Source: Escherichia phage A5-4. From it: a stretch of DNA of 64,000 nt. The first letter of the stretch is position 1, and every line of letters starts with the position of its first letter. The notes beneath the pieces are model-generated. The model saw only the letters and a list, made by a program, of their open reading frames with translations. It was not told the DNA's origin and searched no databases. Position numbers and translations under genes: made by a program. This document shows, one piece after another, positions 2,206-14,696 of the stretch. The DNA is taken from sequence record OP744025; one strand, given 5' to 3'.

Positions 2206-3381
2206 TCAAAACGGAATATCGTCGTCAAAATCCATATCATCTACAGACATATTCACATGGCCTTCGATATCAGGTGTAGGTGAATCTTCTGCTGACGGAG
2301 TTAACTGCGGTTCCGGCTCAGGTTTCTTTTCTTCTTTCTTAGGAGTTGAAGCACCGTTACGGATCTTATCTTCCAGTTGACAGATGAATCGGAAATTCTC
2401 TTCAGTCTTAGCAATAAACGTTTCAATGTTATTACTTCCCCAACGGGCAGAAAGAATACCACACTGGCCTAAACGAGCACCAAAAGAATAATCATCCATA
2501 GATTTAAACTCTTCGCGAAGTTTTGCTTTAATGGAGTCCATCGCTGCAAGAACTTGCTCTACAACAATACCCTGATTTGCGATCGTTTCATTCGGGAACA
2601 TTGCATCTGTGATAGACAGTGCATTACCTAAACGAATGGGGAGATCATCCTTACCTTTACCTGAACGAGAACCTGTTCCGGTGTTTGCACCTTTTGGACC
2701 ATATGCTTTAAAGCCAGTTACAGTACCATCTTCTGCACGAACACCTGCAATACGACCACCTTCTGAAATCTGACCTGCTTGTTCATCAGTAAGATTTACA
2801 GTAACTTCTGTGCCATCTTCCAGCTTAACAACTACCTTATTGCCTTCGATAGATGTGATATCACCATAAATCTTCTTAGCTGCACCACCAGACGGCTTTT
2901 GCTGCTGTTGGGAACCACTTGATTGCTGCTGTTGCTGACGAGGCTCACGAGCACCGGATGCGTCAGTAATTTTGATACGTGCTTTCTTACCTTCTGTAGA
3001 AGAACCTTGACTACCATCTTCTTTGGTATAGGTCTTGATAACAACAGGTAAACGAATTTTCATACCCTCTTTAAGATCAGTGTAACCACCTTCAGGATTT
3101 TTAATCTGGAACTGATTCTCATACTTCAGGTTTTTAACTTCACCCTCACCAAAAGAAATCCATGCTTGATCTTCACCTTCTTTAAGAAGAACCGCATAGC
3201 GGTGGGTATTGTTAATGCTTTTCTGCTGACCAGTATTCTTGTCTTTGAAGGTAGTCACTCGTGGGCTACCATCTCCATTAATACGTTTGATCATGATACG
3301 TTCAATCGTACCTGCTGCGATGTTTACTGTGGTATCGGAAACAGCATCGTATACAGCATTGATAACTTTAACTTCAGACAT
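2206..3381 (-). CDS. putative single-stranded DNA-binding protein
   Basis: 391 aa. C-terminus DDMDFDDDIPF is an SSB-type acidic tail; Gln/Ser-rich flexible linker (EPRQQQQQSSGSQQQQ); lies in the replication gene block. Confidence 0.5.
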   Translation of the reverse strand: MSEVKVINAVYDAVSDTTVNIAAGTIERIMIKRINGDGSPRVTTFKDKNTGQQKSINNTHRYAVLLKEGEDQAWISFGEGEVKNLKYENQFQIKNPEGGYTDLKEGMKIRLPVVIKTYTKEDGSQGSSTEGKKARIKITDASGAREPRQQQQQSSGSQQQQKPSGGAAKKIYGDITSIEGNKVVVKLEDGTEVTVNLTDEQAGQISEGGRIAGVRAEDGTVTGFKAYGPKGANTGTGSRSGKGKDDLPIRLGNALSITDAMFPNETIANQGIVVEQVLAAMDSIKAKLREEFKSMDDYSFGARLGQCGILSARWGSNNIETFIAKTEENFRFICQLEDKIRNGASTPKKEEKKPEPEPQLTPSAEDSPTPDIEGHVNMSVDDMDFDDDIPF

Positions 3382-10625: not shown

Positions 10626-11047
10626 ACTCCATAATCTATCTTAACAAGCTTCCCTTTGTAGTATCCAAAGTTTTTAGGAAATGCGTCGTACTCGAAGAAA
10701 TCTCGGTCAAGGGTTCTATCTTTATCGTTATCAACCTCATCATAAAGTTTTTGTAGATCAGCTGTAAATAATCCCTTATTCTCTACTGGTTTAGCCTTGT
10801 GCATCACAACCATAAGTCCGAATCTGTTTGAGTAAGCTATTGGGCATAGATGCGGGTTATTATACCCTTTCCACTGACCCTCCGTCATATTGCTGAGCAT
10901 TCCCTGAACAAACGCCTTCCATGAATTAAATCTTGGGAACTTAATCGCATACTTGTTTGTGATTATGACAATTCTCGTCCCACCACTCCTGTTTATCTGC
11001 ATCTTAATATCTCCAGACCTCGTTACTTGTTTCGATGAGGGCATCAT
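10622..11047 (-). CDS. hypothetical protein, possible small kinase-like fold
   Basis: 141 aa; Gly-rich loop RSGGTRIVIITNKYAIKF and KIDYG near C-terminus faintly resemble kinase subdomains. Speculative. Confidence 0.45.
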   Translation of the reverse strand: MMPSSKQVTRSGDIKMQINRSGGTRIVIITNKYAIKFPRFNSWKAFVQGMLSNMTEGQWKGYNNPHLCPIAYSNRFGLMVVMHKAKPVENKGLFTADLQKLYDEVDNDKDRTLDRDFFEYDAFPKNFGYYKGKLVKIDYGV

Positions 11048-11084
11048 ACCAGAATGAATCTGTGTGTCAACACTTTTTATTCAG

Positions 11085-11112
11085 GCAATAAAAAACCACC
11101 CCGAAGGGTGGC
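11085..11112 (-). terminator. rho-independent terminator
   Basis: Hairpin ccaccc-cgaa-gggtgg with T-run on the minus strand, just downstream of polymerase exon 2. Confidence 0.6.
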
Positions 11113-11129
11113 TTAAGATTAAAATTTCA

Positions 11130-11429
11130 TTAGTGACAATCTCCCCAGCTGTATCCACAAAGGTATTCTCCAGTTATCATCACTGGTGATTTCATCATCT
11201 TAGCTGCTTGTTCGACACAACGAACAACCATCTCTCCTACAGGGCAGTATGTAATAGTGAAGATACCATTTTCATCTGGATCACACTTAAACTTCCCTTC
11301 CTTCACGCAATGACCATCCAAGATCATTTTCTTAGCCAAGCAAGCTTCTACAAATTTCTTCGCGTCAGCTTCATTGTCAAAGGTCCAAGTCTTCTTAAAC
11401 TTGTGTGGCACTTCAAGCTGGTATTCATC
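11130..11429 (-). CDS. DNA polymerase (family A, T7 gp5-like), exon 2
   Basis: Frame of ORF 11130..11480 from GAT at 11429: DEYQLEVPHKF... ending ...GYSWGDCH, matching the family A C-terminus (T7 ...NWAICH); completes motif C when joined to exon 1. Confidence 0.7.
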   Translation of the reverse strand, partial: DEYQLEVPHKFKKTWTFDNEADAKKFVEACLAKKMILDGHCVKEGKFKCDPDENGIFTITYCPVGEMVVRCVEQAAKMMKSPVMITGEYLCGYSWGDCH

Positions 11430-12201
11430 CAAAAGTTTAACGAGGTCGTTACTCTCGCCCACATCATTACATGTTGCCATACGTTTTCACGTATGGATCG
11501 GACTATATCACCATCCTTTTCAGGATGCTCCCCATTTCGACGGCACTTGCTCGCCTACGCCTCTCGGCTAGTCTCTGAACGTTAGGACCATGTGTAGTCA
11601 CAAGAGATGTGTGTCCAGTTTTTACGGATTTTTATGGACCTTACCACGTTGTAAGGATAACCCATATCCCGAATCTGTGCACTTCCATAACCTTGCCCCA
11701 GGAAGTTGCAAATCTCTCTAACCTCTTCTTCGGTAACTATACTTCTGGCGTTATCAACCCCTGTTGCTGAACGACATTTATCAGCAAAGGTTTTCTTGAT
11801 ATTTCCACCACGAGTTGTCCATTGGAGGTTTGAATAGTGGTTATTCCTTTTGTCAGGCCACTTATGATCAACCTCCGGCAAACCTTCAGGGTTTGGTACA
11901 AAACACTCTGCCACCAAAACGTGAACAGCCTTTGTAGTCGTCCTTTTGTTGAGATACAGACTTACAATAAGATACCCACGTCCATTATCAACTGCCGCCA
12001 TTGGTTTCCCTCGACGACCTATAATGGTCCCGTCTTCATAAACCTTGTAACCGAAATAATCTTTATATTCCACATGATCCTCTTCGCTGCTGATTAACAT
12101 AGTCTCATACTAACTCACACTTGAATTAATATCAACCTTAGTCTTCCAGCAATTAAAGGAGTTTTCGATGTGAGTTACCTCACAAAGCCACAATGTTACT
12201 T
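11430..12201 (-). mobile_element. group I intron carrying an HNH homing endonuclease gene, inserted in polymerase motif C
   Basis: 772 nt between codons H and D of HDE. 5-prime exon ends in U, intron ends in G. Contains P-like AAUUGCUGGAAGACU (12139-12153), Q-like AAUCAGCAGC (12086-12095), R-like GUUCAGAGACUA (11566-11581) and S-like GAUAUAGUCC (11500-11511). Confidence 0.7.
11582..12100 (-). CDS. HNH homing endonuclease (intron-encoded)
   Basis: 172 aa; GYLIVSL...AVHVLVAECF...VDHKWPDKRNNHYSNLQWTTRGGN is an HNH-3 type signature; lies between the two polymerase exons. Confidence 0.75.
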   Translation of the reverse strand: MLISSEEDHVEYKDYFGYKVYEDGTIIGRRGKPMAAVDNGRGYLIVSLYLNKRTTTKAVHVLVAECFVPNPEGLPEVDHKWPDKRNNHYSNLQWTTRGGNIKKTFADKCRSATGVDNARSIVTEEEVREICNFLGQGYGSAQIRDMGYPYNVVRSIKIRKNWTHISCDYTWS

Positions 12202-14085
12202 ATGGTAATAGATAATACGTCTAACGCCTTCATCATACCAACCTTTCTTGACCAACTGCCAGTGCAGGAGGATACCCACCAAGTCAAACAGTGCAGCACC
12301 ACCATTCTGCTGATAAGCATTAAGCAATGAGTGTTTGGAACGAGTGTAGATCTTACGCCCATCCAGACCATAGATGAATCGCTTACCGTTAGCTTCCCAA
12401 AACTTCTCTAATGCTTCTTTACGACCTTTCAAGCCGATGTTGCTATCCCAGAATGCGTCGATTACTGCTTGGGCTTTCTCAAGACTGATACCAAGCATTG
12501 ATGCAATCTTCGCTGCCTGTGCCCCGTACATGATTCCGTATGTCACCCCTTTACCTTCGCCACGAGAAACCTTCTTCCCTGCTGCTTTGGTATATGCTTC
12601 TGCGTTTCGGGAGTGAGCATCTCCAGATTCCATGATACGAAGATAAGCACCGCCATCGAAATCATAAGCGCCCCATGCTGCGATCATGCCTTCCAAGTTT
12701 GAACCGTCGATACCTACCTGATATTTACCCTCAGAGGCTCTGAATAGTTCACGCATCTCTTTACCGAGAAGAACTTTCTCATCCGGCTTAGGTACGTTTG
12801 CTACGATCGTATGCTTACGACGACCTGTGTTAGTTATTCCACTATAACGGGCCGGAAGTTTACCGTCAACTCGTAGACGTGGATGGTTAAGCCATCCGGT
12901 ATCAACCTTCTCTTCTTTCAGCGGGTCAAGAACAGATCGTCGGTTACGTAAAGACAGCCATTTAACAATCTGTTTAGCCATTTCACCATCTACTCGCTCA
13001 AGGTTAGGGCAAAGACCTTGCTGATCCTTAAGTTGCGGGGATGTTGGCAATGCACGAGCTTTCTTACGGAAAAACTTGAACATCTTTTCTTTATCTGACC
13101 ACTGCTTAGGTGTGATCGCCAAGCTTTTCAGAATCAGATCACGATACTCCGTCTGATCCAAATCTTCAATGTATTGACGAACAATCAGATCAACCTCACT
13201 ATCAGGACGCTGTTTCTTGAACTGATCTTTAGTTGCATCCTTTGTACGCCAAATTGTTGGGACCCACCCTGCATCACGGATCAGGAACTTCTTAACGTCG
13301 TCCTGGTTACCAATACGCATCGGAATCATAATGTCCGGCATCTTTTGTTCTTTGATATCCATCAAAGCACGAGCCATATCTTCCGGCGGCAAAGGAACAA
13401 GTCCTTGCTGCTTAACGTTTTGTGCACGGATAAAATCACCCATTTTGGATTCATCCTCTACACCGTGCTCAACACAATACTTGATCGCGGCGGCAGTAAG
13501 AGATCCGTCAGCCTTAAACGGCTTACTTGGTGCACCTTTAAACTCCAAGGCTTCCCAATTGATATTATAACCTAACTTCTCTAACCATTTCCAACCTGTA
13601 CCGGAAAGAGATCCATCACCCTTGAAAGGTTTAGATGGGAATGTCGGTTGTGCTGATTTCGACATCTCTTTCTTCGGCAACTTAGGTTCAACCTCTAACT
13701 CAATGTCTGTCATCATCTTATCGATACGATCACGAAGCTTGAGTGCTTTTTCTTCATCAAATGAAACACCCTGAATTTCTTGCTCAATCATCAGGTAGTC
13801 AGTCAACATACCTCGACGCAGGGCATTCTTCCAGTTGATCATTTTATACTTCTTCTGATCTTTGTCTGTTTCATCCTTATACATGAAGCGTTTATCATCC
13901 GGCATAGATTCACAAGAGATCTCTTTCATCAGAGCATCCCATACCATTTCGTTGATAATTACGTCTTCAATAATACGATCGCAATACTTCCAAAGTGGAA
14001 GGCCACGCCAATCTTCGATCGCCACTTTCTGGTTAGCTACTCGCATACCCCAAGCTTCAAGCCCGTGTGGCCCTACAGGCTTCAT
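12202..14085 (-). CDS. DNA polymerase (family A, T7 gp5-like), polymerase part, exon 1
   Basis: HGLEAWGMRV matches T7 HALEAWGYRLG; Exo III-like YCDRIIEDV; motif B region SRGEGKGVTYGIMYGAQAAKI; reading frame ends ...RRIIYYH at the intron junction (track ORF 12196..14085). Confidence 0.8.
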
Positions 14086-14531
14086 TTTACCGTGACGGGG
14101 TTCTTTACCATCTCAGGACAACCGCGAGGCAGAGGGCGATCTGGATACAGTGTACGGGACATTGAAAGTGTATCGAAGATGTTTACTTGTTTACCATTAA
14201 TCGTACCCATGCAACCAGGGTCTGCAAACATATCGTAAGTTGTTCCAAGCATCTTCTTAAACAACTGGAGGTCGTAGCCGAAGATGTTGTGGATAGCAAT
14301 TGCTTTAGGCTCTGTGACAAACCACTCGTTTAATTCCTCAATGGTCCGAATCTTAAAGTTTTTACCTTTAGATTGGATAAATTTAACAGCTTGATCGTAA
14401 CCTTCCCGCTGGGGATCAAGAAAGATGTTCCAGTTATCTTTTTTATACTCTTTAAACAAGACGCAGTGAATCAGATCAACCTCTGTCAATAGACCATTCG
14501 CTTCCGCATCTCCAATAAATAAGCCTTTCAT
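14082..14531 (-). CDS. DNA polymerase 3-prime-5-prime exonuclease N-terminal part (Exo I/II), separate frame
   Basis: Exo I FIGDAEANGL and Exo II AIHNIFGYD align with T7 gp5 DIEAN / HNGHKYD. Likely start ATG 14531 with GAAGGAG RBS. Stop overlaps the next ORF start (ATGA at 14082-14085). Confidence 0.7.
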   Translation of the reverse strand: MKGLFIGDAEANGLLTEVDLIHCVLFKEYKKDNWNIFLDPQREGYDQAVKFIQSKGKNFKIRTIEELNEWFVTEPKAIAIHNIFGYDLQLFKKMLGTTYDMFADPGCMGTINGKQVNIFDTLSMSRTLYPDRPLPRGCPEMVKNPVTVK

Positions 14532-14696
14532 TTTTTCTCCTTCTTCAAGCTCCAACTAGACTAAAACAAAGCCCAGCCGGAGGTATGACCCTTCGGCTAG
14601 GTTATCAAAAGTGTCGGTATCCTTCATCAATAAAATAAAGCATCACTAACAGGGCGAATACCCCACATAAGAAGATCAAGCCCAATAAGGTGGGCA

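Follow-up and report, generated by a model that had tools for sequence, protein, structure and literature searches.

The region analyzed here lies within a stretch of 64,000 nucleotides from Escherichia phage A5-4 (sequence record OP744025; hereafter the window), an rV5-like coliphage placed in the Vequintavirinae, and all features described below are on the minus strand. Two open reading frames in this region encode parts of a DNA polymerase. The upstream frame (12196..14085) has the C-terminal end ...GVRRIIYYHK followed by a stop codon, and the part of it that we treat as exon 1 (12202..14085) is an open frame ending ...YYH, with the His codon CAU at 12204..12202 and a match to the Pfam family DNA_pol_A (E = 2e-11). 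The downstream frame (11130..11480) contains LLDEYQLEVPHKF and has the C-terminal end GYSWGDCH. Exon 2 (11130..11429) comprises 99 aa plus the stop codon, reads DEYQLEV...SWGDCH, matches the DNA polymerase family PHROG 8888 (E = 1e-52) and opens with the catalytic Asp-Glu of motif C. Both frames, with these ends, are present at the positions given by an earlier reading of the same DNA, made from the sequence only and hereafter called the sequence-only reading. A hairpin followed by a U-run, resembling an intrinsic terminator, lies just 3' of the polymerase stop codon (11093..11114). At the other end of the gene, the true start of the polymerase is located upstream, at ~14555, the frame being broken by an apparent 1-nt deletion near 14090-14094.

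The sequence-only reading had joined the two frames at the His and Asp codons, had recognized family A motif C in the result, and had likened the end of the downstream frame to the NWAICH of T7 gp5. When the joined polymerase was aligned with T7 gp5, riiyyHDEyql was placed against ymawvHDEiqv (H653-D654-E655), so that the alignment spans the junction and bears out the motif. The C-termini are alike as well in direct alignment (...GPNWAICH in T7 gp5 and ...GYSWGDCH in the joined polymerase), T7 gp5 indeed ending as claimed and aligning with the tail of exon 2. Exon 2 alone gave no significant match when compared with the PDB sequences. The Asp of motif C is a metal ligand of family A polymerases with an established catalytic role, and the insertion point between His and Asp corresponds to H653 and D654 of T7 gp5 and positions 881 and 882 of E. 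coli Pol I. The spliced product is predicted to be a protein reading ...YYHDEYQLEV..., with ...TATTACCAT joined directly to GATGAATAC... at the RNA level. All 12 of the aligned introns carry an in-frame UAA at intron positions 4-6, so unspliced RNA would yield a truncated protein ending ...YYH(K/R), or ...YYHK in the case of the 11430..12201 copy.

The insert between the two exons occupies 11430..12201 and is exactly 772 nt long. Its limits could be read from phage A7_1, a relative that is 95% identical and lacks the insert, and whose DNA at the junction reads ...TATCAT immediately followed by GATGAATACC...; no bases are shared at this junction and the flanks differ, therefore the limits of the insert are unambiguous. 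The polymerase of A7_1 is a single CDS of 884 aa, in which RRIIYYH runs directly into DEYQLEV (...GVRRIIYYHDEYQLEVPHKF...), i.e., an uninterrupted polymerase identical in arrangement to the predicted spliced product. Of all the evidence for the proposed join, this natural allele without an intron is the strongest single item; it encodes exactly the junction expected from an insertion between the His and Asp codons at 11430-12201. The U that ends the 5' exon (12202) and the G that ends the insert (11430), two further details of the sequence-only reading, were both seen.

Other close relatives fall on either side of this comparison. In A73, W70, and LTH01, viable isolates that keep the intron in an essential gene, the polymerase region is ~97% identical and the insert 99.9-100% identical, while A7_1 and UPEC06 are ~95% identical with only 76% of the query covered, in two pieces. 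Phages that are 95-97% identical thus differ in whether they have the intron (e.g., A73 vs. A7_1). Exon 1 ends with TACCAT in all intron-plus alleles and differs synonymously in the two intron-minus alleles (TATCAT and TACCAC), a pattern that, weak as it is with two intron-minus alleles, would fit a constraint that P1 places on the exon solely in intron-bearing alleles. No co-conversion tract was seen around the junction when the source phage was compared with A7_1, and hence no direct trace of recent homing; the only divergent patch between the two lies ~850-1100 nt upstream of the junction and is unrelated.

A covariance search with the Rfam model Intron_gpI (RF00028) aligned 12211..11478 with the full model (positions 1-253), at a score of 42.9 bits (E = 9e-9). 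This score is below the gathering threshold of the model (50 bits), and a scan of the whole window at that threshold returned no match. The Rfam alignment places an insertion of 497 nt in P6, and the shortfall would be a penalty from this insertion rather than the mark of a weak core, because the ORF-less copies at the same site (64.7-77.3 bits) and CR9, which has the same architecture (56.7 bits), exceed 50 bits. The intron-less A7_1 control gave no Intron_gpI match. Beyond the end of the model (11478), the intron continues for 48 nt that include P9.1 and P9.2 and finish with the terminal G at 11430.

The structure of the ribozyme was worked out from an alignment of 12 diverse same-site copies, from which the cargo was removed and in which 6 nt of each exon were kept. 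The predicted intron, 772 nt long and assigned to subgroup IA2 (11430..12201), starts with AAGUAA and ends with the terminal G (omega-G) at 11430. Its internal guide sequence CAUUGUGG (12188..12195), read from the sequence, is contiguous for P1 and P10: in P1, which was recovered by RNAalifold, GUGG pairs with CCAU of exon 1 and leaves a U.G pair at the splice site, and in P10 CAUU pairs with GAUG of exon 2. P1 is invariant in the 12 copies and P10 too, save for one position in K412, so the support for these two helices is sequence and not covariation. The P2 hairpin UGUGAGGUAACUCACA (12169..12184) has double-sided compensatory changes at 6/6 pairs. The 5' strand of P3, CUCCUU (12156..12161), pairs with 11528..11533, with compensatory changes at 3/6 pairs and 100% of the cells paired. 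The P element AAUUGCUGGAAGACU (12140..12154; 5' strand of P4 and start of P5) and the Q element AAUCAGCAGC (12086..12095; 3' strand of P4) were located by the Rfam alignment and by pair counts, and lie on the two sides of a P5 extension (12107..12135) that includes a hairpin at 12110..12129. The 5' strand of P6, AGGAUCAUG (12073..12081), pairs with CAUGGUCCU (11584..11592), and this stem, which closes the loop holding the ORF, shows compensatory changes at 6/6 pairs across copies with different cargo.

On the 3' side of the ORF, the R element GUUCAGAGACUA (11569..11580; 5' strand of P7) has as its partner the S element GAUAUAGUCC (11500..11509; 3' strand of P7), the latter located by the Rfam alignment and pair counts. 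In the resulting P7 pseudoknot 100% of the cells are paired and one pair is compensatory (U-A to C-G). Between P7 and the 3' strand of P3 lie P7.1 GCCGAGAGGC, a GUA linker and P7.2 GGCGAGCAAGUGCCGUC (together 11539..11568); the linker is invariant in 12/12 copies and P7.2 has compensatory changes at 3/4 pairs, while P7.1 was left out of the pair counts since the alignment is poor there. These are followed by the 3' strand of P3, GGGGAG, and the P8 hairpin CAUCCUGAAAAGGAUG (together 11512..11533; compensatory changes at 5/6 pairs of P8), and, after the S element, by the hairpins P9 (11477..11496), P9.1 (11462..11473), and P9.2 (11439..11459), located by pair counts within 11439..11496. A compensatory change in P9.1 is private to the 11430..12201 copy (CAU/AUG vs. 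CAC/GUG in the others), and P3, P7.2, and P9.2 have three covarying pairs each. According to published criteria, subgroup IA2 is defined by two additional helices, P7.1 and P7.2, which lie between P7 and the 3' strand of P3 and are joined by G-U-A (PMC3428280), and the P7.1-GUA-P7.2 arrangement seen here indicates membership in this subgroup.

When RNAalifold was run without a group I prior, it returned P1, P2, P3, P4, P5, P6, P7.2, P8, P9, P9.1, and P9.2. P7 was added as a pseudoknot, and one spurious invariant helix was dropped before the pairs were counted; this helix, GUCCGA/UUGGAU over the 3' splice site, was considered an artefact of the unmodelled P7 and was replaced with it. Canonical pairing was found in 98.4% of 806 cells, vs. 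36-41% when the 3' partners were slid by 1-3 columns, and 35 pairs had double-sided changes, vs. 4-9 in the slid controls. In 500 shuffles, none matched the observed paired fraction, the number of double-changed pairs or cells, or the covariation score, and the 11430..12201 copy has all of its canonical pairs intact (68/68). Each of the strings that the sequence-only reading had proposed as P, Q, R, and S is found a single time in the insert, and their order is canonical; the group I identity that it had drawn from them is upheld far beyond chance by the full-model Rfam match together with the covariation statistics. Readings of the insert as an intein or a group II intron were discarded, because the reading frame meets a stop two codons into the insert, a reverse transcriptase is missing, and the core is that of a group I intron.

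The ORF looped out of P6 (11582..12100) encodes an HNH homing endonuclease, with a longest frame of 172 aa from an ATG at 12100. It matches PHROG 59 (HNH endonuclease; E = 1e-33) and lies just under the Pfam cut-off for HNH_3 (23.9 bits vs. 24.8; E = 3e-5). I-HmuI (1U3E), the only solved structure in the PDB related to it by sequence, was matched with E = 3.5e-5 using the single sequence and E = 2.1e-12 using a profile of five sequences, the match being confined to the N-terminal part and the HNH part (residues 10-100) and stopping at ~100-118. The architecture of I-HmuI has three parts, one of which is a helix-turn-helix DNA-binding domain at the C-terminus. His79, Asn86, Asn87, and Asn100 are invariant in five homologues and, like the conserved D78, align with the HNH motif of I-HmuI. 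A structure prediction from the alignment of five sequences was too poor for use (mean pLDDT 46.6), with three C-terminal helices at low confidence in this AlphaFold model. Pairwise comparison of the homologues gave pN of 0.18-0.34 vs. pS of 0.68-0.96, raw pN and pS being used as the dN/dS ratio was incalculable for most pairs due to saturated synonymous sites. Since pS is saturated and pN low, the HNH gene is being maintained as a protein, i.e., is under purifying selection. An HNH homologue in the Autographiviridae phage Khlen, followed up as a lead to a T7-like polymerase intron, proved to be free-standing and surrounded by structural genes, and was set aside as irrelevant.

The ATG at 12100 sits in the P5/P4 strand, 5 nt upstream of Q. 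The likelier start is a GTG at 12073 (163 aa), preceded by GAGGA and located after Q, because in SSE121, WalterGehring, and CM1 the protein begins about five residues before the conserved motif Y(H/F)GY, and the frame further upstream is not open in SSE121. The placement of the HNH gene between Q and R by the sequence-only reading therefore stands for the frame that begins at GTG 12073 and does not for the longest ORF, from ATG 12100, which overlaps Q. At its 3' end the ORF stops with UAA (11584..11582), 1 nt upstream of the R element. The 5' strand of P6, AGGAUCAUG, consists of the GAGGA and the start codon, and its pairing partner, CAUGGUCCU, is made up of the final codons of the ORF; because this putative Shine-Dalgarno sequence, GAGGA, and the start codon lie in the 5' strand, folding of the ribozyme probably hides the ribosome-binding site in P6 and limits translation of the endonuclease. 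In addition, a weak sigma70-like match (TTGATA-17-TAGTAT, 9/12 positions) within the P5 extension (12107..12135) may serve the endonuclease gene as an internal promoter; the record of PVP-SE1 also has an annotated promoter at this position of the intron. In the introns of phage T4, expression of the ORF is uncoupled from that of the host gene via internal promoters and a sequestered ribosome-binding site.

The same ribozyme was found at the same site in Vequintavirus, Certrevirus, Seunavirus, the Aeromonas Plateaulakevirus, and the Vibrio phage K412, each copy being preceded by ...TACCAU and followed by GAUGA(A/G). The copies differ in length and cargo: those without an ORF measure 254 nt (K412), 276 nt (rV5), 328 nt (SYGMH1), and 343 nt (KP12), followed by CB7 and phiTE (687 nt), Aeromonas 2L372D (740 nt), SSE121, CR9, and the OP744025 copy (771-772 nt), WalterGehring and ime (842 nt), and PVP-SE1 (919 nt). 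An HNH gene of the type found at 11582..12100 is carried by OP744025, CR9, SSE121, and WalterGehring, a shorter HNH gene that is only 31% identical to it by CB7, phiTE, and the Aeromonas copy, and a LAGLIDADG_2 gene (E = 1e-16), located downstream of the R element (P7), by PVP-SE1.

The closest system with splicing data is that of the Pectobacterium phage CB7, for which Buttimer et al. 2020 (PMC7344957) used RT-PCR on infected cells together with Sanger sequencing to demonstrate that both HNH-containing inserts of the polymerase gene are spliced. One of them (the CB7_50 insert) has the identical site, between YYH and DEYQLEV, as well as the same guide sequence and ribozyme ends; the ORF of this type of intron is also looped out of P6, P2 to P9.2 align column by column with 11430..12201, and the ribozyme flanks of phiTE are up to 95% identical to those of the present intron. 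The cargo of CB7 is different (an HNH protein of 127 aa, 31% identical to the product of the 11582..12100 ORF), its P5 extension is longer, and CB7 has a second polymerase intron upstream, which is absent from the OP744025 window. The CB7 insert was classed as group I solely by its HNH gene (PMC7344957), and the RNA structure of the intron at this site was worked out in the present analysis. A homologous intron at the identical site is thus already known to splice, and 11430..12201 is a further example at a known site. In the GenBank record of the BASEL phage WalterGehring, the polymerase is likewise a joined CDS that encloses a 'putative homing endonuclease'.

More distant systems share some of these traits. 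PhiI and W31, two T7-like phages, have introns that reportedly self-splice. These are IA2 introns with an HNH gene in P6a, inserted at Pol I position 881, and thus resemble 11430..12201 in subgroup, in ORF location, and in the boundary between His and Asp of motif C (PMC3428280), but they reside in another host polymerase and phage family (Autographiviridae); as to a relation between the ribozymes, the shared insertion position is what is documented. The insertion at a catalytic motif, which the sequence-only reading had called the usual pattern of homing introns, hence has precedents at this very site in CB7 (PMC7344957) and in PhiI and W31 (PMC3428280). The introns of SPO1, SP82, and Bastille (with I-HmuI, I-HmuII, and I-BasI) are also group I introns in a family A polymerase with a nicking HNH endonuclease, but they belong to phages of Gram-positive hosts and are inserted, together with that of Pf-WMP3, at Pol I position 674, in the finger subdomain (PMC3428280). 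The T4 introns in td, nrdB, and nrdD have in common with the present one the IA2 core, an endonuclease ORF in a peripheral stem and a conserved site in a gene of nucleotide metabolism or replication, but they occupy different genes, and the endonucleases of td and nrdD are of the GIY-YIG type.

Taken together, we assign a probability of roughly 93% to the reading that 11430..12201 is a mobile, self-splicing group I intron of subgroup IA2 in the family A polymerase of an rV5-like phage, inserted between the His and Asp of motif C. The group I intron interpretation put forward by the sequence-only reading is supported by the Rfam match, the T7 gp5 alignment, the A7_1 junction, and the splicing of the CB7 homologue (PMC7344957). 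In this scheme, transcription of the polymerase gene would run through the intron, the guide sequence CAUUGUGG would pair with CCAU of exon 1 to form P1 with its U.G wobble at the splice site, and the P3-P9 core would fold, allowing a free guanosine to attack the 5' splice site. P10 would then form between CAUU and GAUG of exon 2, the terminal G (11430) would enter the G-binding site, and ligation of the exons would restore ...YYHDEYQLEV... and with it an active polymerase; for the 11430..12201 copy, self-splicing is what we infer. By analogy with I-HmuI, the HNH endonuclease would, during mixed infections, nick or cut polymerase alleles that lack the intron, close to the insertion site, and the intron would be copied in when the cut allele is repaired, which is homing.

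The alternative that survives best, although we consider it unlikely, is a ribozyme that splices while the element itself is immobile, the HNH protein being inactive or repurposed and the intron inherited vertically. The missing co-conversion signature around the junction with A7_1 would agree with this, and the frequent ORF-less derivatives at the site (rV5, SYGMH1, KP12, K412) make clear that the endonuclease can be lost. The HNH_3 score, marginally under the Pfam cut-off, points in the same direction, but in the present copy the ORF is intact and the HNH residues aligned with I-HmuI (D78, H79, N86/N87, N100) are conserved, with low non-synonymous divergence against saturated synonymous sites. 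Presence and absence among phages 95-97% identical is, moreover, what would be expected of a recently mobile intron.

Appreciably less probable is that splicing needs a protein cofactor from the phage or host, or that the ORF in P6 impairs folding, which would make splicing inefficient and regulatory. The introns of T4 td and of PhiI and W31 reportedly self-splice in vitro under mild conditions. Folding could be slowed by the 497-nt insertion in P6 and by an ORF that overlaps core elements, but the IA2 intron of Pf-WMP3, with an ORF in P6a, self-splices in vitro, and the ORFs of PhiI and W31 are at the same position as that of Pf-WMP3 (PMC3428280). The splicing evidence for CB7 is solely in vivo (PMC7344957), as a dependence on cofactors would allow; against such a dependence, all core helices are intact in the 11430..12201 copy.

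We regard it as very improbable that the polymerase is split without splicing, by insertion of a free-standing HNH gene, into two pieces that are translated separately and reassemble, as reportedly happens in the Aeromonas phage Aeh1, where the NrdA subunit is split by mobE. The records of A73, CR9, and SSE121 in GenBank do list two separate 'DNA polymerase' CDSs, and in the clade of the OP744025 phage an in-frame ATG is found 17 codons upstream of exon 2, but this ATG belongs to the P9 stem and lacks conservation: in rV5, SYGMH1, WalterGehring, K412, and the Aeromonas copy the frame meets a stop 2-8 codons upstream and offers neither ATG nor GTG; likewise, one HNH-containing insert of CB7, in a different gene, did not splice, but the homologous one does (PMC7344957), the site is also occupied by copies of 254-343 nt that have no ORF, the split would part the His from the catalytic Asp of a single motif, and the flanking RNA retains full group I covariation, which a mere intergenic spacer would lose.

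Read as a homing intron, the insert adds one more case to the established pattern of such introns at catalytic motifs of phage replication genes. It also calls for a correction of annotations, as the records of A73, W70, LTH01, CR9, SSE121, and rV5 list two polymerase fragments, with a 'hypothetical protein' or HNH gene, rather than a single spliced polymerase, and the 11430..12201 intron goes undetected in a standard Rfam scan at the gathering threshold. The same-site copies with different cargo or none provide a convenient comparative series and leave the current understanding unchanged. Going further, we tentatively propose, at slightly less than even odds, that a single IA2 ribozyme 'chassis' has remained fixed between the His and Asp of motif C in several phage lineages, that its endonuclease cargo has been repeatedly exchanged or lost, and that in the HNH-bearing forms the covarying P6 stem, built from the opening and closing codons of the ORF, hides the ribosome-binding site. 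If true, these phages would offer an unusually clean natural series for the independent association of ribozymes and endonuclease genes, and also one for the coupling of endonuclease translation to ribozyme folding.

In the window sequence as recorded, the polymerase frame is broken in its N-terminal part as well as by the intron. At 14082..14100 (-), the window reads GTCAC-GGTAAAATGAAG where both A73, a close relative with the intron, and A7_1, a relative (~95% identical) without it, have GTCACAGGTAAAATGAAG, i.e., 1 nt has been deleted in the window, outside any homopolymer. Because of this deletion, the frame encoding the polymerase N-terminus (14082..14555, minus strand) terminates at ...NPVTVK*, and its TGA stop shares bases with the ATG that opens the following frame (ATGA). 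The deletion reflects either a sequencing error or a true split between the exonuclease part and the polymerase. Farther along the gene, at ~13060..13300 (nt ~1260-1500 of the polymerase gene, counted from its start), each 60 nt contain 11-13 mismatches to A7_1, compared with 0-6 in the remainder of the gene; this divergent patch is a mosaic segment that has no relation to the intron. The region 11043..11114 (-) contains a strong terminator-like hairpin (11114..11093) directly after the polymerase stop codon, followed by a sequence match to a sigma70-like promoter (11070..11043; 11/12, extended -10) ahead of the next gene.

Further group I introns were detected with Rfam in known or apparent polymerase genes of other phages (L numbers denote their loci, with locus coordinates). 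CB7 (L004, 2944..3614), phiTE (L005, 446..1116), KP12 (L007, 445..1116), and SSE121 (L010, 195..417) carry a second one farther upstream in the gene (37.5-52.1 bits), for which the window has no equivalent. Another (68.9 bits) was found in Vibrio phage vB_VibM_10AMN (L014, 419..758), where it precedes a large ORF. The gene that holds it resembles a split polymerase gene and carries only hypothetical-protein annotations; a second match in this phage, at 2501..2601, is to the 3' half of the window intron. In phage rV5 (L009, NC_011041), a 276-nt group I intron without an ORF occupies the same polymerase site as that of the window (2393..2668, 64.7 bits). The rV5 genome paper gives the polymerase as 775 aa and mentions introns in the terminase only, and the C-terminal polymerase exon is annotated as a separate gp220.

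Inside the P5 extension of the window intron, a sigma70-like match (TTGATA-17-TAGTAT) at 12107..12135 (-) may represent an internal promoter for the endonuclease gene. A promoter was annotated at the corresponding intron position by the depositors of PVP-SE1 (L006, 1569..1595), and CR9 and SSE121 retain TTGATA-17-TAATAT and TAAAAT.

One ribozyme at one site carries cargo that is unrelated or only distantly related between phages. In the PVP-SE1 intron (L006, 1501..2419), the cargo is a LAGLIDADG_2 gene located 3' to the R element (the P7 5' strand), while the introns of CB7 (L004, 3999..4685), phiTE, and Aeromonas phage 2L372D (L015, 2499..3238) encode a short HNH in P6, 31% identical to that of the window. 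As the CB7 intron combines CR9-like P2 and P9.2 with phiTE-like cargo, its sequence suggests recombination within the intron.
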